Shown: in pieces, positions 21,653 to 34,837 of the stretch
Position numbering within the stretch: the stretch's first letter is position 1
How the letters are laid out: every line of letters starts with the position of its first letter
Assembly (NCBI GenBank): GCA_017996215.1
Contig: JAGOHL010000017.1
Location: 60,118 to 124,117, forward strand
Length of the DNA: 64,000 nt
Direction: 5' to 3'
Origin: Nannocystaceae bacterium
GTDB taxonomy: Bacteria; Myxococcota_A; Polyangia; Nannocystales; Nannocystaceae
The notes under the pieces: model-generated
What the model saw: only the letters and a program-made list of their open reading frames with translations
What the model was told of the DNA's origin: nothing
Databases searched by the model: none
Position numbers and translations under genes: made by a program

Positions 21653-22558
21653 TCAGGGAGCCGGTGCGACGGCGCCGTCGGGCGCTGCCTTCGTGGGCTG
21701 CACGGCCTCGGCACCACCGGTCGGCATCGCGAACTTCGTGCCGTCGACGGGCACGTTGAACTCGACCACCGTGAGCGTCTGCGTGGCCTTCGCGATGCTG
21801 ATGTCCATCACTTGCTGGTAGGGCAGCTTGAAACCGTCGACCTCGCGATAGTCCTCGAGCTTGACCGACACCGGCGTGTCGCCCAGCGGCGAGGCCTGGC
21901 TGAACGCGTGGGCGACCTGCAGGCCGGACGCAGCATCGAAGCTGAGCGTGACCTTGGTGCCGCTCTTGGCCGCGAGCTCGACGTCGTAGACCTTCTTGCC
22001 GTCGAGGTCGCGCTCGCCGACCGTCTTCGCGGTCTCGAAGTAGCGCTGCCACTGGGCCGGCAGCGACGGGCTCGAGGCCCACGCCTGCTGCTCGGCCTCG
22101 ACGCCGGTCAGCTTCCGCAGGCCGCTGATCGGGTCTTCGGACCAGCTGACGTCGCCCTGCTTGCCGGCGCGCACGGTGCCGATGCCGACCATGGTCTGCT
22201 CGCTGTAGAAGTCGCCGTTCTTCCACCACAGCTTCATGTCGCCCGTGATGTTCTGGCCGCTGACCGCCACCGTGCCCTCGAGGTGAAGGCTCTCGAGCGC
22301 GTCGACCTTGGCCTTGCCGCCCTGGGCCTCGACGGCCTTGGCGAGCAGCGTCTCGGCGCTCGGGAGCCCGGCCGCAGCGGCGTCACTGCCACCGGCCTCG
22401 GCCTTGCCACCGTCGGCCTTGTCGGTCGCAGCCTTGCCGCCGTCGGCCTTGGCGGCCGTCGCCTTGCCACCGTCGGTGGTGGCGTCCTTCTTGTCGTCGC
22501 AGCCGGCCGCGAACACGAAGCTCGCGAGCACGAAGGTCAGCAGCGCTGGGGCACGCAT
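21653..22558 (-). CDS. Hypothetical lipoprotein with (A/K/D/G)-rich repeat linker
   Basis: Signal peptide with lipobox 'FAAGC'. 'KADGGKA' repeats, then a ~230 aa globular region. ATG overlaps the stop of the upstream S41 peptidase (TGATG). Confidence 0.65.
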   Translation of the reverse strand: MRAPALLTFVLASFVFAAGCDDKKDATTDGGKATAAKADGGKAATDKADGGKAEAGGSDAAAAGLPSAETLLAKAVEAQGGKAKVDALESLHLEGTVAVSGQNITGDMKLWWKNGDFYSEQTMVGIGTVRAGKQGDVSWSEDPISGLRKLTGVEAEQQAWASSPSLPAQWQRYFETAKTVGERDLDGKKVYDVELAAKSGTKVTLSFDAASGLQVAHAFSQASPLGDTPVSVKLEDYREVDGFKLPYQQVMDISIAKATQTLTVVEFNVPVDGTKFAMPTGGAEAVQPTKAAPDGAVAPAP

Positions 22559-24015
22559 CAGTGGGTTTCTCCTGCGGGAGGGGTCGGAGCGGGGGTGGCC
22601 GTCGAGCCGCCCAGCGACGCCACCGCGGCGTCGAGGACCGGATCGTGGCCCGCGGCGAAGTCGGCACGATGCTCGGGTACCACGACATCGGGGACCACGC
22701 CGACCCCCTCGACGAGCTCGCCCTTGGGCGAGCGGTAGTCGCCGACGACGTACTGCAGGATCGCGCCGCCCGGCAGCTCGTCGATCACCGACGGCAACGC
22801 GGCGCCGGCCGAGGGGCGCGCCCCGAACACCTTCACGCGATCGAGGTCGCGGAGGCCGGCCGCAAAGATCTCCGAGGTGCTCGCGGTGCCCTCGTCGACC
22901 AACAGCGCGATGGGGCCGGCGAACGCCAGCGGGTTGCCCTCGACGTTGAACTCCTGGGCGAAGTCGCGAAACTGCAGCTTGCCGAGGCTGCCGGGCGACT
23001 GCAGCAACATGCGTGCGACCGGCACGCTCATCGCACCGACGCCGCCAGGGTTGCCGCGCAGATCGAGCACCAACGCGGTCATGCCCTGGCTGCGCAGCTC
23101 GTTCATGCCGGTCTCGACGCGCTTGACCATCGGCAGCATCCACACGTTGAACGCGAGGTAGCCGACGGTGGTGCCCGGCACCATGCGGTGCTCGACGCGG
23201 GTCGGGATGTTCTCGAGGTTGCCGAGCGTCACGCGCTCGCCCTCGGGATCGGTGCAGGTCAGCACGCGCACGAGCTTGCGCTCGCTGCCGGGCTCCGCGA
23301 CCTCGAGCTTCTTGGTCTGTCCCGGGCGCGCGCACGACAGCCGCGCCTCGGCGACGCGCGCGATCTCGAAGGCGAACGCCGACTCGCGCTCGGCGTGTCC
23401 GCGCACGCGCGTGATCGCGGCGCCGAAGTCCTGCCCGTCGATGGCCAGCAGCGCGGCCCCGGCCGCGACCGGTCCGAGGTGTCCGGTCGCGTGGCTCTCG
23501 ACCACCACCAGGCTGTCGTCGACCCAACGCACGCGCAACGGTGGCGTCGCGGTGCCCTCGCGCTGGTCTTCGTCGGCCGCGCCGTCGGGCGGGAACAGCC
23601 GGAAGTGACTCTGCCCGAGCTCACCGAGCATCTCGTTGATGATCGCGTACGCGCGCGTGGCATCGTCGACACCGACGAGCCGCTGGGCGTACTGCAGGCG
23701 CAGCGCGGGCCAGTCCTTGCAGCCGAGCTTCGGGTCGTAGTGCTTCTCGAGCACCTTGAGCCACACCTGCTGCAACACCTCGACGAACTTGCCCTCCGGC
23801 AGCGGTGGCAGCGACGCGGGATCCAGCGTGGAGTAGTCGGTGCAGGCGGCCGGGTCGCGCACCGGGGCACCGCTGCGGTCCTTCTCGGCCGCGTGCGGAT
23901 CGGCCGGCGCCGCGACGGCCGCCGGGGTCGACACCGGGCTCGACTCGCCGCACGCGGGCGCAGCGATCGCTGCACACCACCACCATCGAAGGTGCCCTCG
24001 ACGACGCGCGATCAT
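22558..24015 (-). CDS. S41-family peptidase (C-terminal processing / tail-specific protease-like)
   Basis: Lipoprotein signal (AAIAAPAC). Catalytic core 'LVLDLRGNPGG' and typical S41 segments. Start at internal ATG 24015; the track ORF runs to 24426 through low-complexity sequence. Stop overlaps the next gene. Confidence 0.8.
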   Translation of the reverse strand: MIARRRGHLRWWWCAAIAAPACGESSPVSTPAAVAAPADPHAAEKDRSGAPVRDPAACTDYSTLDPASLPPLPEGKFVEVLQQVWLKVLEKHYDPKLGCKDWPALRLQYAQRLVGVDDATRAYAIINEMLGELGQSHFRLFPPDGAADEDQREGTATPPLRVRWVDDSLVVVESHATGHLGPVAAGAALLAIDGQDFGAAITRVRGHAERESAFAFEIARVAEARLSCARPGQTKKLEVAEPGSERKLVRVLTCTDPEGERVTLGNLENIPTRVEHRMVPGTTVGYLAFNVWMLPMVKRVETGMNELRSQGMTALVLDLRGNPGGVGAMSVPVARMLLQSPGSLGKLQFRDFAQEFNVEGNPLAFAGPIALLVDEGTASTSEIFAAGLRDLDRVKVFGARPSAGAALPSVIDELPGGAILQYVVGDYRSPKGELVEGVGVVPDVVVPEHRADFAAGHDPVLDAAVASLGGSTATPAPTPPAGETH

Positions 24016-24719
24016 TCGTAGGTGACGCGCTCGAGCGCCGACAGATCCAACACGACGATCTCCTGGCGGCTCAGGTTCAGGATGCCGTTGCGCTGCATCC
24101 GGTTGAGCGCGCGCGAGATCTCCTCGCGGACGGTGCCCAGGCGCGCCGCGACGGTGTTCATGTCGAGCTGGCGCGGGATCACGGTCTGCTTGCCGGGCTC
24201 GGCCCCGTTGCGCACCGCGAGCGTGAAGAGGAACGAGGCCAGCCGACGCTCGACCGAACGCAGCGACAGGTCGAGCACGAGATCGATGAGGCGGTTGGCG
24301 CGGAAGGCCATGTGGCGCATCAGCGCGAACGCGAGCGCCTCGGATCGGGCGGTGAGCTTGACGACCGCGTCGGTCTCGAAGCGATACACCTCGGAGTCGG
24401 CCATCGCGAAGGCACTCGCGGCGCACTGCACGTCGCGGGGCAGAAAGCCCTCGCCGATCATCTTGCCGGGCTCCGCGAGGTAGAGGATCTGCTCGCGACC
24501 CTCGCTCGAGATCAGGCTCAGCTTGAACTCGCCCGACTTGACCAGGAACAAGCCCGGGCCGGGCTCACCGCGGCGGAACAACGAGCGCTTGCGCTTGACG
24601 TCGAGCAGCTCCGCGATCTGGTTCAGTTGTCCGAGCACGTCGTCGGGCACGCGGTCCCAACCTGCCCAACGCTTGAGCATCTTCGAGACCAGCTCGGCAT
24701 CCGCGGCGTCGACAGCCAT
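24012..24719 (-). CDS. Crp/Fnr-family transcriptional regulator
   Basis: cNMP-binding beta-roll (LFLVKSGEFKLSLISSEGREQILYLAEPGKMIGE) and C-terminal HTH (RQLDMNTVAARLGTVREEISRALNRMQRNG). Start ATG 24719. Stop abuts the S41 peptidase start. Confidence 0.8.
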   Translation of the reverse strand: MAVDAADAELVSKMLKRWAGWDRVPDDVLGQLNQIAELLDVKRKRSLFRRGEPGPGLFLVKSGEFKLSLISSEGREQILYLAEPGKMIGEGFLPRDVQCAASAFAMADSEVYRFETDAVVKLTARSEALAFALMRHMAFRANRLIDLVLDLSLRSVERRLASFLFTLAVRNGAEPGKQTVIPRQLDMNTVAARLGTVREEISRALNRMQRNGILNLSRQEIVVLDLSALERVTYE

Positions 24720-24867
24720 GCGCGGAGTGTAACCCCATGCGCACGCGCACGCGACACTTCTCACGCGCGATCGCGGGTCTTTCCTGCCCCTCGCAGGGCC
24801 CCGCCGCCACCGGGCGCCGGCGGCCCCGGGCCCTCGAGGCCGGCGCCTGTTGGGGGCACCCGCAACC

Positions 24868-25224
24868 CTACGCGGGGTCGGGCACGGGCTCGAAGCGCCC
24901 ACCGCGAAAGCGGCCCCGCTTGGGGCCGAGCGGCTCGGCCTCGTGCGAGAGCTGCCGCAGCCAAGTCCACGCGTAGATGCCAGCGTCGTGACCGTCCGAG
25001 AAGCGGATGCCGAGCGCGTACGCGCCCATCTCGTAGAGTCCGACGGCGGCGATGTCCGGCGCCACCTCGAGCTGGCGGACGACGTCGCCGTGGCCCTGGC
25101 ACTGCGCGCACGGGCACCAGCTGCGAAGGTAGGGGATCGCCAGCTCGCTGTGGCTGCCGTCGTCCCACGTCACCAGCAACGCGTTGCGTCCGATCGAGTG
25201 CGCGATGTCGGTCGGTGCGCCCAT
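24868..25224 (-). CDS. DUF971 (gamma-butyrobetaine hydroxylase N-terminal-like) domain protein
   Basis: 118 aa from ATG 25224: 'LLVTWDDGSHSELAIPYLRSWCPCAQCQGH...GIRFSDGHDAGIYAWTWLRQL' matches the DUF971 fold with its Zn-binding Cys pair. Confidence 0.65.
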   Translation of the reverse strand: MGAPTDIAHSIGRNALLVTWDDGSHSELAIPYLRSWCPCAQCQGHGDVVRQLEVAPDIAAVGLYEMGAYALGIRFSDGHDAGIYAWTWLRQLSHEAEPLGPKRGRFRGGRFEPVPDPA

Positions 25225-27109: not shown

Positions 27110-28309
27110 CTACGGAGCCCCGAGCGCCCGGATCGCCGCGGTGACGCCGACGTCCTTCTCGCCCACGACCGGCATGTCTCCGGTCAACGCGACCGCGACG
27201 TCGGGTGTCACGCCGCTGCCGTCGACCAGGCGATCGTCGGGCGAGTAGTAGCGCGCGATCGTGAAGGTCGCGACCGAGCCGTCGGGCAGGCCCATCACCT
27301 CCTGCACGGTGCCCTTGCCATAGCTGCGCTCACCGACGACGCGCGCACGCCCGCGATCTTGCAGCGCGGCCGCCAACAGCTCCGATGCCGACGCGCTGTG
27401 GCGGTCCTGCAGCACGACGATCGGCGTGGCGAGATCGGTGCCAGGGGCGTGTGCGGACTCCTCGCGCAGGATTCGCCCGCCACGTCCGCGGGTCCGCATC
27501 AACACCCCGTCGGCGACGAAGGTATCGGCGATGACCAGCGCCTCACCGACCTCGCCGCCGGGGTTGCCGCGCAGGTCGATCACGATGCCGGCGAGGTCCT
27601 TGCCGAGCGCGTGGCGTCGGGCCTCGATCGCGCGCTTGAACGCGTCGCCGCTCTCGGCCCCGAAGCGCCGCAGGACCACGTGCACGTAGCTGCGCCCAGC
27701 CTCGTCGCGCACGACCGCGGTCTCGAGCATCTTCGTGCTGGGGCGCGCCAGCACCAACTCGACCGCACGGGGGCCGTTGCCGTCGACGGGCTGGACCAAC
27801 AACGCGACCTCGTCGCCGATCGCACCGACCAGCAGGAGCTCGGCCTCGCGCTGCGACGCGAGCGCGTCGACGGACTTGCCGGCGATCTCGACCACCGCAT
27901 CGCCCGGGCGTAGGCCCTCGCGCGCCGCCGGGGAGTCGGGCGCCACCGCCAGCACCTCGAGGCGACGCGCTCGCGAAGCAGCTTCGGTGCGCATCGCGAC
28001 TGCAAGCCCGGTCTCACCCGAGTGCTTGTGGCGGCGCAGCGCCTTGCGATCGGCGGCGCTCAGGAAGTGACTGTGGGGATCGAGCTCGCCCAACATCGCC
28101 GAAAGCCCCGCGGACAACAACGCGGCCTCGTCGACCGGCTCGTAGTAGCGGGAGAACACCGCCTCCACCGCCTGGTCGAAGCCCGCACGATCGAGCCGCG
28201 GCGCCGATGCAGCCCGCAGACCGGGCTCCAGCGCCGCAGTTGCGACCAGGGTGCACACCACACCGAGCGCAAACCCCACGGCGCCGATTCGACGCTTCAT
28301 CCCAACCAT
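27110..28309 (-). CDS. S41-family carboxyl-terminal processing peptidase (CtpA-like) with PDZ domain
   Basis: Signal/TM (IGAVGFALGVVCTLVATAAL), PDZ segment (GDAVVEIAGKSVD) and S41 core 'IVIDLRGNPGG...ASASE'. Start ATG 28309 (or 28300). Confidence 0.85.
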   Translation of the reverse strand: MVGMKRRIGAVGFALGVVCTLVATAALEPGLRAASAPRLDRAGFDQAVEAVFSRYYEPVDEAALLSAGLSAMLGELDPHSHFLSAADRKALRRHKHSGETGLAVAMRTEAASRARRLEVLAVAPDSPAAREGLRPGDAVVEIAGKSVDALASQREAELLLVGAIGDEVALLVQPVDGNGPRAVELVLARPSTKMLETAVVRDEAGRSYVHVVLRRFGAESGDAFKRAIEARRHALGKDLAGIVIDLRGNPGGEVGEALVIADTFVADGVLMRTRGRGGRILREESAHAPGTDLATPIVVLQDRHSASASELLAAALQDRGRARVVGERSYGKGTVQEVMGLPDGSVATFTIARYYSPDDRLVDGSGVTPDVAVALTGDMPVVGEKDVGVTAAIRALGAP

Positions 28310-28344
28310 CGTGGCGTATCCTCCGCGCGAGGTCAAAGCACCCC

Positions 28345-30285
28345 ATGACACCCATCGAGAACATCCGCTCCGATCGTTCCATCGTCGCGCGTCCCCGCGG
28401 GCTCGCTCGCTTCGCGCCGCTCATGATGGTCGCGTCGCTGGCGATCGCGTGCAAGAAGGACGACGCCAAGCCCGCGGATGCCAAGGGCACCGAGAGCAAG
28501 GACGGCAAGGTCGCCGACGCCGACACCAAGGACGGCAAGGCACCCGACGCCAAGACGCCCGACGCCAAGGCGCCAACGCCGACGGGCGACGCGCCGGTGG
28601 TCGCGCCTTCGCTCACCCGCGGCGACGTGCTCGCGCACGTCATGTTCGCCAACCCGTCGGTGCTGCTCGGCGAGATCAAGACCCAGATCGTGCCCGAGTC
28701 GGCCGCGCAGTTCGTCGACGAGTCGTTCCTGCGCACGATGGGCGGCGGTGCGCTGGGCTCACGCAGCGCACTCGCGACCAACCTCGACCTCGCCAAGCCG
28801 ATGGGCTGCGCGCTGGTCGACAGCACCACCACCAAGGCGCCGCTGGCCTGCGTGATCGGCTACACCGGTGGCTCGAAGCAGCTCGTCACCGACCTCGGTG
28901 AAGAGGGCAAGCAGACCGACGCGGGCTCGCACATCGCGAAGTACTCGGTGAACGGCCAGGACCTCTTCATCGACGACCTCGGCGGCGAGGTCATCGTCAG
29001 CAACGCCGACGAGCTGTTCGGCAAGGCCCGGAGCTACCTCGCGGACTCCATCATCGGGCGCGCCAGCGCCATGAAGACCGACGTCGAGATCGTCGCCTAC
29101 CCGGCCGACCTCATGCGTCGCTACGACGCCGAGCTCCGTCCGGTGTTCGACGCCATGGCCAAGCCCCCGACGCTGCCGACCGGCGGCAGCGCGGGCGAGA
29201 AGTTCGCCGGCGCCATGGCCGAGTACGGCATGAAGTCGAACGAGCGCACGCTCAAGATGATGCAGGAGATGCAGCAGTTCTCGATGGCGATGTCGGTCGA
29301 CGGCGCCGGCCTCGAGCTGACCTACGCGCTGCAGCCCACGCCCGGCACCGAGCTCGCGAAGCAGTACGAGATCACCTCCGCCGGCCCGGTCGATGCCGCG
29401 TTCGTGTCGTCGCTGCCGCGCTCGAGCTGGGGCGTGATGGGCTTCAACGCGCACATGTCCGAGGCGCTCGACACCGGCCCCGTGAAGGAGCTCCGCAGCG
29501 CGCTCGTGAAGGGCTATGCCGAGGCACTCGGCAAGGATGCCGCGCAGACCGAGGCCGCACTCGTCGAGTTCGCCAACGAGGCCCGCGCGACCTACTCCGG
29601 TCACTCCGCACTGGCACTCATGCAGGAGCCCGGTAGCGTCGGTGCGCTCGCGGCCGTGTTCGGCCTCAAGGACGGCGTCAACGCCCGCGAGGCCTGGAAG
29701 ACCTGGTCGGGTGGATTCACCGTCGAGTCGTTGCTCGGCGCCGACGCGGCCAAGAAGGTCACGTGGAGCTTCCAGTTCGACGCCGCGAAGGTCGGCGAGG
29801 TCGCCGTCGATCGCTGGGTCATCGAGCCCACCGACGAGGTGAAGGCCGAGATGCGCAAGGACGGCGGCGCCAAGCTGGCCGAGTGGGAGACCAAGCTCGG
29901 CGGCCTCAAGCTCGTCGTCAACCGCGTCGAGCGCGATGGCAAGGTCGCGTGGATCATCGGCTCGGCCGCCGACGAGGCCTCGACCAAGGCGGTCGTGGAC
30001 GCGATGGCGGGCAGCGCCTCGCTGGCCGGTGATCCGGGCCTCGACAGCGCGCTCGCACGCACGCCGGGCGCGTCGGCCATCATGGCCCTCAACGTCAAGG
30101 GCATGCTCGCGTGGATCGCCACGCTCGCGCCACCCGAGGAGGCCGCGAAGATCCCGACGGGCATCGGCAGCGATCTGAACGACGTGGTCATCACGACCAC
30201 GTACTCGCCGTCGGGTCCGCAGGTCGGCGAGATCGCGTTCTCGCAGAAGCTGGTCGACGGCGTCCGCGCGCTGGCGAACAAGTAG
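28345..30285 (+). CDS. Hypothetical lipoprotein (K/D/A-rich linker plus ~550 aa globular domain)
   Basis: Signal peptide with lipobox 'SLAIAC', 'KDGKxxDA' repeat linker, large alpha/beta region. Start ATG 28345, divergent and 35 bp from the CtpA start. Confidence 0.6.
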   Translation: MTPIENIRSDRSIVARPRGLARFAPLMMVASLAIACKKDDAKPADAKGTESKDGKVADADTKDGKAPDAKTPDAKAPTPTGDAPVVAPSLTRGDVLAHVMFANPSVLLGEIKTQIVPESAAQFVDESFLRTMGGGALGSRSALATNLDLAKPMGCALVDSTTTKAPLACVIGYTGGSKQLVTDLGEEGKQTDAGSHIAKYSVNGQDLFIDDLGGEVIVSNADELFGKARSYLADSIIGRASAMKTDVEIVAYPADLMRRYDAELRPVFDAMAKPPTLPTGGSAGEKFAGAMAEYGMKSNERTLKMMQEMQQFSMAMSVDGAGLELTYALQPTPGTELAKQYEITSAGPVDAAFVSSLPRSSWGVMGFNAHMSEALDTGPVKELRSALVKGYAEALGKDAAQTEAALVEFANEARATYSGHSALALMQEPGSVGALAAVFGLKDGVNAREAWKTWSGGFTVESLLGADAAKKVTWSFQFDAAKVGEVAVDRWVIEPTDEVKAEMRKDGGAKLAEWETKLGGLKLVVNRVERDGKVAWIIGSAADEASTKAVVDAMAGSASLAGDPGLDSALARTPGASAIMALNVKGMLAWIATLAPPEEAAKIPTGIGSDLNDVVITTTYSPSGPQVGEIAFSQKLVDGVRALANK

Positions 30286-30367
30286 CCCTCGCGTCGGGGC
30301 GACGACGGCGTCCATCACCGCCGTCGTCGCGCCCACGGGCGGCCGACGCAACCGCGTCGGCTCCGCC

Positions 30368-30547
30368 TCACGCTGCGCGCTTGACCGCCACCGGCACGGT
30401 GCCGCTGGCGTCGTCGAGCGACCGACGGGCCCTGTCGAACAACCGCGCCTCGCGGACGCGCTGCACCTCGTTCGCCATCGCCTCGGTCGTCACCGCATCG
30501 ACGAAGCGCGACACGAAGGCGTAGTAGCGGATATTCGGAGCTTGCAT
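30368..30547 (-). CDS. Small protein (59 aa) with strong Shine-Dalgarno
   Basis: GGAGGA sits 6 nt upstream of ATG 30547. ORF 'MQAPNIRYYAFVSRFVDAVTTEAMANEVQRVREARLFDRARRSLDDASGTVPVAVKRAA' has coherent codon usage. No known family. Confidence 0.4.
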   Translation of the reverse strand: MQAPNIRYYAFVSRFVDAVTTEAMANEVQRVREARLFDRARRSLDDASGTVPVAVKRAA

Positions 30548-30862
30548 GGTCGTTCCTCCCGTCCTGCCAAACCCAACGGAGCTCGGGTGCTGGCCTGACA
30601 CCCGAACAACGAGTGCAGGCGCCGTACCATATCGAGGCACGTCCGATCGCGGTCCGGTGTTCCCGTCGATCGTCCCAGGGCGGGCCGCAGGGGTCGCGGC
30701 GGGGACCGTGGCCGATCGCCCGAAACGCGGCGCGACGGCCCGTGCTTTCGCGTAGTTCGGTCGGTCCGGTGCGATCCCCGAGCGGACGGGAACGGACCCG
30801 CGCGTGTCGAAGTTGTGGCCCCGCCCGCCAGATTGCCGACGGTGCAGCGTCGGAGTTCCATC

Positions 30863-31789
30863 ATGCGACACGTGGACGAGCCGCACACTGGTCGAATCGC
30901 GCGCAGCTGCGAGGCCTGCGGCGCGGTGGTGTCGCTGCCGGCGGAGCGGATCGCAGACCAATGTCCTTGGTGCGGATCGCGGCTCGTGGATGCCAGTGCC
31001 GCGGCCCACATCGATGCGGTGTGCCCCTTCGTCGTGTCCGAGCGGGCGGCGACGACACGGCTGCGCGAGCACGTCGCGGACGCGTTCTGGGCGCCCCGGG
31101 AGCTGCGGCAGCTGGCCCGCAGCGGGCAGCTGCGACCCGAGGCCCTGCGCGGTGTGCTGGTGCCGTACTACGCGTTCGATGGCGTGACACAGTCGCGTTG
31201 GCAGGCCCGCATCGGGATCGATTGGTGGCGCACCGAGATGGTCCGCGACGAGCAGGGCCGGGCCCGCAAGCGACGGGTGCGTGAGACCGAGTGGCACGAG
31301 CTGCGGGGCACCGCAGTGGGTGAGTTCGTGGCGCAGCTGCAGTGCGGCTCGACCGCGCTGCGCGAGCACGAGATCGCGGGCCTGGGCCGTTTCGATCTCG
31401 GCACCGCGGTGGCCTTCGATCCGCGCGTGCTCGCCGGCTTCGCGGCCGAGCTGCCGGCGCTGCGGGCCGACGAGGTCGCCCACGCGGCGGTGACGGCCGC
31501 ACGCGCCGCCGCCACGCGCCGCATCGAGACCGAGGTGCTCCCGGGCGAGCATCCGAGCCTCACATCGATTGCGACCGAGGTGCGCTTCGCCGCGCCCAAG
31601 CTCGCGCTGGTCCCGGTGTGGATCGCGAGCTATCGCCACCGCGGCCGCACGCATCGACTGCTGGTGCACGGCCAGTGCGGGCGCTGCGTCGGCCGGCCGC
31701 CAATCGATCGTGGCAAGGTGACGATCGCCGCGATGACGATCGCCGTGGTGGTGGTGGCGTGGCTGTGGCTGGCGGGGGTGTGGTCGTGA
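30863..31789 (+). CDS. Zinc-ribbon-containing membrane-anchored protein, paralog A
   Basis: N-terminal CxxCG...CxxCG zinc ribbon (SCEACGAV...QCPWCGSR), ~220 aa middle domain and C-terminal TM helix (VTIAAMTIAVVVVAWLWLAGVW). Alignable along its length with the next gene. Confidence 0.55.
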   Translation: MRHVDEPHTGRIARSCEACGAVVSLPAERIADQCPWCGSRLVDASAAAHIDAVCPFVVSERAATTRLREHVADAFWAPRELRQLARSGQLRPEALRGVLVPYYAFDGVTQSRWQARIGIDWWRTEMVRDEQGRARKRRVRETEWHELRGTAVGEFVAQLQCGSTALREHEIAGLGRFDLGTAVAFDPRVLAGFAAELPALRADEVAHAAVTAARAAATRRIETEVLPGEHPSLTSIATEVRFAAPKLALVPVWIASYRHRGRTHRLLVHGQCGRCVGRPPIDRGKVTIAAMTIAVVVVAWLWLAGVWS

Positions 31790-32640
31790 TCGTCGTGCGT
31801 TGCGATGCATGCGGCGGCACGGTGACGTTCGATGCCGATCACGCGCGGGCACAGTGCCGCTTCTGCGCCGCGGTCGCGCTGGTCCCGGTGCCGCTCGACC
31901 GCCCACCGCCGCCGCCGCGTGAGGTCATCCCCTTCGCGATCGACGAGGCGCTGGCCCGGGAGCGCTTCGCGACGTGGACCCGCAGCTCGTGGTGGCATGC
32001 GCGGGACCTCGGCGCGGCGGTGGTGCAGCTGCGACCGCTGTGGTTGCCGGCGTGGCGGGCCCGTGCCGAGGTCGAGCTGCACTGGGCTGGCTTGGTGCGC
32101 GCCGACACCCGCAGCGGCCGACGCCCGCGCAGCGGCATCGATCGAGCGCCCGCGCAGGCCTTGGTGCCGGCCTCGCTGGGCATCTCGCAGCGCGAGCTCG
32201 ACGCGCTCGGCGGCTTCTCGACCCGTCGGCGTCCGTGGCTCGACGACGACGCCGAGATCACGCGGGAGCTGCCCAATCTCAGCGAGGCGGGTGCGCGGGC
32301 GCAGATCCAACGGGCGCTGCAGGCTGAGCGGCTGCGCGAGGTCGCGGCACGCGAACACCTGCACGATGCAGGCGCGACCGCACGCCTGCACGGCGTGGCG
32401 CTCGAGCTCGATGCACTGCCGATCTACATCGGCGCGTTCGCGTACCGCGGTCGGCCCTGGCGCATCGTCGTGCACGGCGAGTCCGGTCGCCTGGTCGGAC
32501 GCGCACCGCTCGACCGTGTGAAGGTCACGATCGCGGTGGTGCTGGCCGCGATCGTGGCGCTCGCGGTGGCGCTGTGGCTCGAGCGGCGCGAGCCCGGCCC
32601 GCCCACGCCGAGCCCCGCGTCGGCGTCCGACCGCCGCTGA
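31786..32640 (+). CDS. Zinc-ribbon-containing membrane-anchored protein, paralog B
   Basis: GTG start overlaps the stop of paralog A (GTGA). 'RCDACGGT...QCRFCAAV' zinc ribbon, conserved middle domain (e.g. 'IYIGAFAYRGRPWRIVVHGESGRLVGRAPLDRVKVTIAVV' vs 'VWIASYRHRGRTHRLLVHGQCGRCVGRPPIDRGKVTIAAM'), C-terminal TM helix. Confidence 0.55.
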   Translation: MIVVRCDACGGTVTFDADHARAQCRFCAAVALVPVPLDRPPPPPREVIPFAIDEALARERFATWTRSSWWHARDLGAAVVQLRPLWLPAWRARAEVELHWAGLVRADTRSGRRPRSGIDRAPAQALVPASLGISQRELDALGGFSTRRRPWLDDDAEITRELPNLSEAGARAQIQRALQAERLREVAAREHLHDAGATARLHGVALELDALPIYIGAFAYRGRPWRIVVHGESGRLVGRAPLDRVKVTIAVVLAAIVALAVALWLERREPGPPTPSPASASDRR

Positions 32641-32644
32641 CGCG

Positions 32645-34837
32645 TCAGTCCTCGACGCCGAGCTCGCGCATCAGGAACGAGAAGGTGTCGACGGACTGCG
32701 CGATCTCCTTCTTGGTCATGTCCGCGCCGCCGTGCCCCGAGTTCTCCTCGATCCGCAGCAACACTGGCTTGGACGAGACCGCCTGCATCGCGCCGACGAA
32801 CTTGCGCGCGTGCATCGGATCGACGCGGTCGTCACTGTCGGCCGACAGCATCAGCAGCGACGGATAGGCGGTGTCCTTCGCGACGTGGTGGTACGGCGAA
32901 TACGCGAACAAGGTCTCGAACTGCTTCGGGTCCTCGGCCGAGCCGTACTCGCTGATCCACGTGCGGCCGGCGCCGAAGCGGTGGTAGCGGACCATGTCGA
33001 GCAGCGGCACCGCACAGACCACGGCGCCGAACAGCTCGGGGTGCTGCGTCATCGCGGCGCCGACCAGCAGGCCGCCGTTGCTGCCACCCATGATGGCGAG
33101 CTTGTCGGGCCGCGTGATGTCGTTGTCGATCAGCCACTTCGCGGCGCCGGCAAAGTCGTCGAAGACGTTCTGCTTGTGCTCGCCCATGCCGGCGCGGTGC
33201 CACGCCTCGCCGAACTCGCCGCCGCCGCGGAGGTTCGCGACCACGTACACGCCGCCCCGTTCGAGCCACAGCACCGCGCGCGAGCTGAAGCCGGGCTCGA
33301 GGCTGACGTTGAACCCGCCATAGCCGGTGAGCAGCGTGGGGTTGTCGCCGCGACGCTCCATGTCCTTGCGATGGACGACGAACATCGGGACCTTGGTGCC
33401 GTCCTTCGACTGGAACCACACCTGCTCGGTGACGAACTTCGAGGTGTCGACCGGCAGCTCGATCTTCTGCCACAGCTCGGTCTTGCCGCTCGCAATCGAG
33501 GTTCGATAGATCTGCGGCACCTCGGTGAACGAGCTGAAGTAGTAGTAGGCATCGTCTTCGTCGGGCTCGCCGAGCATGCCCGACGCACTGCCCAGACCCG
33601 GCAGCTCGACCTTGCGCACCAGCTTGCCGTCGAGCGTGCGGACCTCGAGCTCGGAGTGGGCGTCCCGCAGGTACGACAACACGAGATGGCCGCCGATGAT
33701 CTGCATGCCGTCGAGCACCGCATCGCTCTCGGGCACCAGCTCCTGCCAGTCCGCGCGCGCGGGCTTGGCCGGATCGACCCGCATCACGCGGTACCGCTGC
33801 GCGCCGTCGTTGGTGTAGACGTAGAACTTGTCCTTCCACGCCCCCGCGCCGTAGACGGCCGGCTGGTCCTTCACCAGCGGCTTGAACTCGGGCGCCGCAC
33901 GACGCTTGGGATCCGGCTTCCCGCGCTTGCCGTGCAGATCGGCGACGTACACGTCGGTCGCGGCCCAGCCCCGCTGATGCGTGACGAACAACCACCGGCC
34001 GTCGCGTGAGACGCTCGCGTTCACGAACCGCGTGGGATCGTGGGCCGCGGGGTAAACCACCGGGTCTTTGCTGGGGTCGCTGCCGAGCGCGTGGAAGCGG
34101 ACCTCCGCGTGGCCCGGCAGCTGCTCGACCGGGATGCTCGGATCGGTCGGGAGGTTGACGTAGTAGAAGCCCGAGTCGTCGGGCAACCACGCGGCGTAGG
34201 CATAGCGCGCGCCCTCGATGGTGTCGGTCGGCATCTCGGCGCCGGTGTCGAGATCGCGCACGTACATCGTCGAGGCGTCGGCGTTGTTGCGCGACAGCTT
34301 GTAGGCGAGGTAGCGACCGCTGCGGCTGGGCATGATGCCGTGCACCGACACGCTGCCGTCGGGGCTGAGCGTGTTCGGGTCCATCAGGACCTCCTCCTTG
34401 CCCTGCTCGCCCTTGCGGACGTAGTAGATGTCCTTCTCCTTGTCGCGATGGCTGCGGGTGTAGAAGTACCGCTCGCCGCGGCGGGTGGGCGGCGACACCG
34501 AGTCGATGTACGACAGCTCCGCGAGGCGCTTCTCGAGCTCCGCGCGCCCGGGCAACGCCTCGAGCCGCGCGCGCGCGTGGGCGTCCTGCGCCTTCATCCA
34601 GGCCTTCACCTCGGCGTTGGCGACGTCCTCGAGCCAGCGATAGGGATCGGCGACCTCGCGCCCATGGATGGTGTCGACCACATCCTCCCGGCGGGTCGGT
34701 GGGACGCCGGGGGTGGCGCCATCGGTGCTCGTCATCTTGCCTCCGCCACCGCCGGCGACCTCGGGTTCGGTCGTCGCGGTCTCGCGGCAAGCGGCCAGCG
34801 CGAGGACGAACAGGGGAACGCGGGACCAGCGATGCAT
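32645..34837 (-). CDS. Prolyl oligopeptidase (S9A family) lipoprotein
   Basis: Lipoprotein signal (LFVLALAAC), beta-propeller N-domain (ADPYRWLED...) and alpha/beta-hydrolase C-domain with the nucleophile elbow 'GGSNGGLL'. Start ATG 34837. Confidence 0.85.
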   Translation of the reverse strand: MHRWSRVPLFVLALAACRETATTEPEVAGGGGGKMTSTDGATPGVPPTRREDVVDTIHGREVADPYRWLEDVANAEVKAWMKAQDAHARARLEALPGRAELEKRLAELSYIDSVSPPTRRGERYFYTRSHRDKEKDIYYVRKGEQGKEEVLMDPNTLSPDGSVSVHGIMPSRSGRYLAYKLSRNNADASTMYVRDLDTGAEMPTDTIEGARYAYAAWLPDDSGFYYVNLPTDPSIPVEQLPGHAEVRFHALGSDPSKDPVVYPAAHDPTRFVNASVSRDGRWLFVTHQRGWAATDVYVADLHGKRGKPDPKRRAAPEFKPLVKDQPAVYGAGAWKDKFYVYTNDGAQRYRVMRVDPAKPARADWQELVPESDAVLDGMQIIGGHLVLSYLRDAHSELEVRTLDGKLVRKVELPGLGSASGMLGEPDEDDAYYYFSSFTEVPQIYRTSIASGKTELWQKIELPVDTSKFVTEQVWFQSKDGTKVPMFVVHRKDMERRGDNPTLLTGYGGFNVSLEPGFSSRAVLWLERGGVYVVANLRGGGEFGEAWHRAGMGEHKQNVFDDFAGAAKWLIDNDITRPDKLAIMGGSNGGLLVGAAMTQHPELFGAVVCAVPLLDMVRYHRFGAGRTWISEYGSAEDPKQFETLFAYSPYHHVAKDTAYPSLLMLSADSDDRVDPMHARKFVGAMQAVSSKPVLLRIEENSGHGGADMTKKEIAQSVDTFSFLMRELGVED

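Follow-up and report, generated by a model that had tools for sequence, protein, structure and literature searches.

The 64,000-nucleotide stretch of DNA analyzed here (the window; Nannocystaceae bacterium, contig JAGOHL010000017.1, positions 60,118 to 124,117, forward strand) carries two adjacent genes, designated A and B, for related proteins with an N-terminal zinc ribbon and a C-terminal membrane helix. Which family do these proteins belong to, and what may they do together? An initial annotation, made without database searches, had described them as a coupled pair of uncharacterized paralogs, could not assign them to any described family and compared them with sensor/effector pairs of defense or signaling islands. 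We found that the pair is conserved as a unit and that A and B are members of a family that has spread very widely but has hardly been studied, whose canonical members are encoded next to SPFH proteins. A and B look like a divergent variant of the family of YdjG/SamG (Bacillus subtilis), judged from sequence comparisons; each has a single ribbon, the gene is duplicated in tandem, and an SPFH gene is not linked to it.

Genes A and B and their products

The gene features are as follows.

30852..30855, + strand: GGAG ribosome-binding site, 7 nt 5' of the gene A start, read from the sequence
30863..31789, + strand: gene A, ATG 30863, TGA 31787-31789, 308 aa; predicted tail-anchored zinc-ribbon protein, YdjG-like family, A clade
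31786..31789, + strand: GTGA, gene B start overlapping the gene A stop (translational coupling)
31786..32640, + strand: gene B, GTG 31786, TGA 32638-32640, 284 aa; predicted tail-anchored zinc-ribbon protein, YdjG-like family, B clade

The tandem arrangement proposed in the initial annotation held in its coordinates, frames and GTGA overlap, and the two products are paralogs (27% identity over 277 aa, BLASTP E 1e-14). The GC content at the third codon position (GC3) was 0.90 in gene A and 0.87 in gene B (~71% GC across the window), as expected of real genes in this genome. An A homolog with 97% identity (P0001) also has 308 aa, with the N-terminus MRHV. An alternative start for gene B is GTG 31780, which would give an overlap of 10 nt and a product of 286 aa; a B homolog with 96% identity (P0043) has 286 aa, matching this alternative start. 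Rfam and promoter/terminator scans of 30200-32800 gave no matches.

Within the two proteins, the following parts were recognized.

30908..30973, + strand: zinc ribbon of A, C16, C19, C34 and C37 (CEACG...CPWCG)
31010..31702, + strand: core alpha/beta domain of A, ~residues 50-280; two helices, long beta-hairpin, helical insert, long helix, 3-stranded sheet
31709..31780, + strand: transmembrane tail anchor of A, ~residues 283-306, 2 residues after it; Kyte-Doolittle maximum 2.4, AlphaFold2 helix 283-303
31801..31866, + strand: zinc ribbon of B, C6, C9, C24 and C27 (CDACG...CRFCA)
31915..32499, + strand: core alpha/beta domain of B, ~residues 44-238; fold of A with a shorter hairpin
32515..32586, + strand: transmembrane anchor of B, ~residues 244-267, within a hydrophobic stretch of ~240-268; Kyte-Doolittle maximum 2.86, AlphaFold2 helix 244-267

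A CxxCG...CxxCG ribbon had been reported for both proteins. A four-cysteine ribbon is indeed present in each, but the second knuckle of B is CxxCA and not CxxCG. These cysteines, the putative zinc ligands, are all invariant or nearly so in the A alignment and invariant in the B alignment, and the Pfam zinc-ribbon matches of both proteins were sub-threshold only. In relatives with two ribbons (see below), it is the second one, next to the core, to which the ribbons of A and B align. One candidate class, the zinc-binding anti-sigma factors (ZAS), was considered and rejected. These carry HxxxCxxC in an N-terminal anti-sigma domain, have an ECF sigma gene beside them and continue after the transmembrane helix into an extracytoplasmic domain; in A and B, HxxxCxxC is absent, the motif is CxxC...CxxC without His, the transmembrane helix is terminal with 2-19 residues after it, and no sigma domain is found in the neighborhood.

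The conserved middle domain and single C-terminal transmembrane helix, also part of the initial description, were borne out by hydropathy analysis and by AlphaFold2 models based on the family alignment (A, mean predicted local distance difference test score (pLDDT) 84.8 and predicted template modeling score (pTM) 0.75; B, pLDDT 84.1 and pTM 0.74). Each protein has one hydrophobic segment, which in A is the sole hydropathy window above 1.6, and hydropathy analysis found no N-terminal signal-like segment in either. The anchor of B is followed by a Pro/Ser-rich tail of about 18-19 aa. Between ribbon and membrane helix lies a core of roughly 230 aa, and the order of elements is the same in both models: a low-confidence ribbon, two helices, a long beta-hairpin (residues 94-128 and 134-161 in A), a small insert made of helices, a long helix that packs against a sheet of three strands, and the terminal membrane helix. 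The ribbons were the least confidently modeled part (pLDDT 56-69). Beyond the cysteines, the invariant positions of the combined A/B alignment are Ala, Pro and Gly; no conserved catalytic-type residues were seen in it, which fits a scaffold role.

Conservation of the A-B pair

Homologs of both proteins (42 for A and 41 for B among 5.8 billion proteins searched) came nearly all from metagenomes or from metagenome-assembled genomes (MAGs) of Myxococcota. We compared 13 A-B loci: the window, 11 loci from a genome scan (mostly Nannocystaceae MAGs) and Paraliomyxa miuraensis. As the initial annotation had proposed to check, the pair does co-occur in other genomes: an A ortholog was directly followed by a B ortholog in all 12 further loci, at 34-58% identity for A and 35-63% for B, and the stop/start overlap was kept in the form RTGA in 13 of 13 (ATGA in L005).

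The surroundings of the pair changed, with at least three unrelated neighborhoods. The first, found in the window, consists of an S41 peptidase, a 646-aa lipoprotein, a small open reading frame (ORF), A-B and a prolyl oligopeptidase; the second has different large genes and a kinase-family ORF; the third, in Paraliomyxa, has a Mur ligase, NlpC/P60 and ferritin. The pair itself is thus the conserved unit, and the duplication is older than the divergence of these genomes.

A restriction of the pair to one lineage had been named in advance as a refutation of the initial proposal, and this is largely what was seen: A-B ortholog pairs were found only in Nannocystaceae-type Myxococcota, and one separate tandem of the family was found elsewhere. 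It lies on a metagenomic contig (L020, 1945-7306), where three genes, each overlapping the next by 4 nt, encode a Ser/Thr kinase of 1019 aa with TPR repeats, the two-ribbon member P0040 and a divergent 341-aa paralog from the same family (hhalign 99.2%, E 7.6e-20). Tested as a candidate B ortholog, the second gene of this tandem scored alike with either profile, A or B (E about 5e-11 in both cases). This second tandem pair appears to be coupled to the kinase.

A widespread family linked to SPFH proteins

In contrast to the initial view that the proteins fit no described family, an A+B profile searched against 1.84 billion representatives found 11,338 clusters (50%-identity clusters) at E<=1e-3 and 3,336 at E<=1e-30, distributed over many phyla. 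Most of the top matches have 355-390 aa, and 124 of 147 top representatives contain four CxxC motifs, i.e. two zinc ribbons; by hydropathy, the tail anchor of these two-ribbon members is in the same C-terminal place. Names given to family members in the source databases refer to the ribbon only (RpoP, S27E, LSD1 zinc finger, TFIIB-type zinc ribbon), and a low-GC profile search gave mostly Bacteroidota proteins named "hypothetical" or "LSD1 zinc finger". No model covering the core was found in Pfam, NCBIfam, PADLOC or PHROG. In a sequence search of the Protein Data Bank (PDB), the zinc ribbon was the sole part of the family profile to find matches, namely RpoP and S27e, and among solved structures none matched the core by sequence and none closely by fold.

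The canonical two-ribbon members, which are single-copy, gave E values of 1e-77 to 1e-91 in the search with the A/B profile and were also found by tblastn with A. In nine of nine canonical loci with upstream DNA, a gene for a soluble SPFH protein (Band_7_1) was located immediately upstream on the same strand. These loci were from Rhodocytophaga (Bacteroidota), an Aminicenantes genome, a Planctomycetota MAG, a Bacillota MAG, Vibrio coralliilyticus, Comamonas odontotermitis, Enterococcus gallinarum and two metagenomic contigs, which carry the closest two-ribbon relatives of A (P0039) and B (P0081). An Anaerolineae member and P0041, both singletons, had no SPFH neighbor. This near-universal pairing supports a general role of the family as a membrane receptor for SPFH proteins that have no anchor of their own.

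The C-terminal module of the SPFH partner was variable: GYF_2 in Bacteroidota, Aminicenantes, Planctomycetota and Vibrio, a double zinc ribbon (DZR) in Bacillota and Enterococcus, and HTH_17 in Comamonas. In locus L018, a DUF2207 membrane protein follows the SPFH/member pair.

The Enterococcus locus, reached by plasmid tblastn, connects the family to a system that has been studied. Its operon consists of an SPFH protein with a double zinc ribbon, the family member (Pfam Zn_Ribbon_TF) and a TPM-domain protein, which is the gene set of B. subtilis ydjI/ydjG/ydjH. In Bacilli, family members would accordingly be the YdjG/SamG component of SPFH-TPM (YdjI-YdjH) operons for membrane stress. The Enterococcus member aligned with the A/B profile over 284 columns, from the second ribbon through the core to the transmembrane helix (hhalign 99.9%, E 2e-31). 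B. subtilis YdjG has been reported with a TF_Zn_Ribbon domain (10.1101/2021.02.15.431232), and the architecture of the canonical members agrees with the description of this protein by Ravi et al., who give its core a YpeB-related or NTF2-like fold. YdjG and YdjH interact in two-hybrid assays and are the membrane anchors that YdjI, the SPFH protein, and PspA require to form foci at the membrane (PMC8581546). A 2026 preprint, in which the proteins are renamed SamG/H/I, treats SamG as the membrane anchor of SamI (10.64898/2026.02.06.704340).

The core may also exist outside cellular genomes. A Foldseek search of BFVD with the A model (30863-31786) matched two Klosneuvirinae giant-virus proteins, of Yasminevirus and Edafosvirus, annotated as "DnaJ-like subfamily C member 3" and having the whole fold in common with A (E 2.8e-9 and 3.6e-7, TM scores 0.51-0.53, about 250-280 aligned columns). 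These model-based matches suggest that giant viruses have the core domain as well, possibly in fusion with a module that recruits chaperones.

A possible function of the pair

The reading we favor, tentatively and as somewhat short of probable, is that A and B are paralogous, cytoplasm-facing tail anchors of the YdjG/SamG family that are co-translated and form a hetero-oligomeric anchor or scaffold for a soluble partner. Both would be inner-membrane proteins that expose a zinc ribbon and a YpeB/PepSY-like core to the cytoplasm and are held by the C-terminal helix. In the Nannocystaceae lineage, a gene of the family would have undergone an old tandem duplication, with loss of the distal ribbon and of the SPFH linkage. 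The RTGA overlap would couple translation of B to that of A, such that the two are made together in a fixed proportion and most likely assemble with each other. The resulting scaffold would recruit at least one soluble partner to the cytoplasmic face of the membrane, by analogy an SPFH/PspA-type protein of membrane maintenance encoded elsewhere. We favor a hetero-oligomer because gene order and overlap are strictly co-conserved, and an anchor or scaffold role because of the analogy with YdjG/SamG and the SPFH linkage of the canonical members.

It should be noted, however, that several observations weigh against this reading. A hidden Markov model built from seven SPFH partners and searched against six-frame translations recovered nine of nine canonical loci, but gave no match anywhere in the 64-kb window or in any of L001-L011 and L016, which are the remaining 12 A-B loci. 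No TPM homolog was detected by phmmer in the same set. Pfam scans of the ten flanking genes in the window revealed neither TPM nor PspA, the rest of the window having had no Pfam scan and no PspA query having been made. Since neither SPFH nor TPM is linked, the presumed client of A and B may not exist. The A-B complex is proposed from translational coupling and co-conservation. Likewise, the identification with YdjG was made through the Enterococcus operon as a proxy, the published architecture and a shared YpeB-like fold signal. Finally, PepSY-like domains are usually extracytoplasmic, whereas the core of A and B is placed in the cytoplasm.

The strongest alternative, which we regard as a real but unlikely one, is that A and B are co-expressed but independent, i.e. 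subfunctionalized, each anchoring a different client as a homo-oligomer or monomer and forming no complex with the other. The two have diverged considerably, as their 27% identity indicates, and by database E-value A lies nearer to two-ribbon relatives (P0036, 33% identity, E 1e-27) than to B. Canonical members are single-copy, and SamG is reportedly predicted as a monomer by AlphaFold 3 (10.64898/2026.02.06.704340). However, all 13 loci have strictly kept the A-then-B order and the 4-nt overlap, although the sequences have diverged by 35-60% and the neighborhoods differ. Obligate partners that are produced at a fixed ratio show this pattern more typically.

The absence of linked SPFH, TPM and PspA genes may mean either that the partner is encoded elsewhere, as in the favored reading, or that the pair works without one. 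In the latter case the second paralog might have replaced the SPFH partner, leaving A-B as a self-contained heteromeric tail-anchored scaffold or sensor that uses no SPFH protein at all. We consider this rather improbable; if true, the pair would represent a new kind of module for membrane organization or envelope stress, with the YdjG-like core as its only building block.

Three further explanations have little in their favor. The first, very improbable, is that the proteins are membrane-tethered nucleic-acid-binding or anti-sigma-like regulators acting through the ribbon. The ribbons do resemble the TFIIB/RpoP type, at sub-threshold scores, and the ribbon of YdjG may bind DNA, as suggested by Popp et al.; however, no sigma factor or helix-turn-helix gene adjoins the pair, and the ribbon is the least confidently modeled and least distinctive part of proteins whose conserved mass is the core.

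The second is the initial suggestion of a membrane-tethered sensor/effector pair of an anti-phage defense or signaling island, for which we see hardly any room. An uncharacterized core, membrane tethering and gene duplication would suit it, as would the Ser/Thr kinase gene next to the relatives in L020 and the kinase-family ORF beside the pair in L003, L004 and L006. Yet neither protein matched a PADLOC family (PADLOC-DB 2.0) at E<=1, and there was no PHROG match. Moreover, the neighbors in the window are of housekeeping type (peptidases, a lipoprotein, formate-tetrahydrofolate ligase), the unrelated neighborhoods of the pair do not point to an island, and the canonical relatives are SPFH-linked in chromosomal, non-island contexts. 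Neither protein contains a nuclease, NTPase, TIR, protease or other effector-like domain, nor the conserved catalytic residues of one.

The third, prompted by the PepSY-like matches of the core and by the fact that PepSY propeptides inhibit M4 peptidases, would make A and B regulators of the adjacent S41 or S9 peptidases, but although the pair has an S41 peptidase upstream and a prolyl oligopeptidase downstream in the window, an arrangement shared by several loci, these are missing in L003-L006, L010 and L016, and S41 peptidases are typically extracytoplasmic, unlike the predicted core, so that this too is scarcely credible.

Gene neighborhood in the window

By Pfam, the ten genes flanking the pair encode two S41 peptidases, a prolyl oligopeptidase, a PQQ-like beta-propeller protein, a formate-tetrahydrofolate ligase, a Crp-family regulator and proteins with no match. 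The following lie upstream of the pair.

22558-24426 and 27110-28351, both - strand: S41 (tail-specific) peptidase genes
24012-24902, - strand: Crp-family cNMP-binding regulator
28345-30285, + strand: predicted lipoprotein of 646 aa; lipobox-like LAIAC, then a linker rich in Lys, Asp and Ala; no Pfam match
30368-30547, - strand: 59-aa ORF, MQAPNIRYYAFVSRFVDAVTTEAMANEVQRV..., with a GGAGG ribosome-binding site, divergent from gene A

The listed ORFs 22558-24426 and 24012-24902 overlap, and one of their starts therefore needs refinement. The lipoprotein gene precedes the pair not only in the window but also in L001, L002, L007, L008, L009 and L011, among them loci in which the identity of A has fallen to 39-42%. 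The other A-B neighborhoods lack it, and its functional link to the pair is therefore uncertain. The 59-aa ORF, which has no Pfam match, occurs at the same position in L001, L002, L007, L008 and L009 (tblastn E 1e-22 to 3e-6). A kinase-family ORF directly adjoins the pair in L003, L004 and L006.

Comparison with known systems

The core of A and B was compared with PepSY/YpeB C-terminal domains (PDB 5boi and 2gu3; PF03413). These domains have no counterpart to its long beta-hairpin and helical insert, and they are usually extracytoplasmic, whereas A and B are predicted to be cytoplasmic. Neither A nor B matched the Pfam PepSY model (PF03413) at E<=1, and the relative P0039 gave E 0.035, below threshold.

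The SPFH-linked two-ribbon members of Bacteroidota, Planctomycetota, Aminicenantes, Proteobacteria and Bacillota, which bear annotations such as "zinc ribbon domain-containing protein", "TFIIB-type zinc ribbon-containing protein" or "LSD1 subclass zinc finger protein", have the same core and tail anchor as A and B, but they are single-copy, contain two ribbons and are adjacent to an SPFH gene. Compared with the YdjG/SamG type (pspA-ydjGHI, i.e. the pspA-samGHI operon), A and B have one ribbon rather than two, the N-terminal TFIIB-type ribbon being gone, and are shorter (about 290-310 aa, not about 340-375 aa). They also form a tandem of overlapping paralogs, and the Pfam-scanned neighbors include no SPFH (YdjI), TPM (YdjH) or PspA gene. 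The Nannocystaceae pair may thus be regarded as a natural experiment, in which the same core has been duplicated, has lost one ribbon and has been uncoupled from SPFH. As a discovery this is modest: the literature has noted the family before, and the pair is a variant of it that is specific to one lineage. Nevertheless, the pair offers a handle on the function of a domain family that is very widespread (more than 11,000 clusters) and uncurated, as well as on the way in which SPFH proteins with no anchor of their own are attached to membranes, and data on an A-B heteromer or on recruitment by it could define what the core does and help explain the part of SamG in envelope-stress signaling of B. 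subtilis. A corresponding role of A and B in membrane stress would be conceivable.

What A and B have in common with YdjG/SamG is the succession of a zinc ribbon, an alpha/beta core, possibly of YpeB-like fold, and a single C-terminal transmembrane helix. With the Enterococcus gallinarum protein (WP_003127086.1) they also have in common core motifs such as LLPVWI..Y and NGQTGEV.G. The role predicted for A and B, that of a membrane anchor, is likewise the one described for YdjG/SamG.

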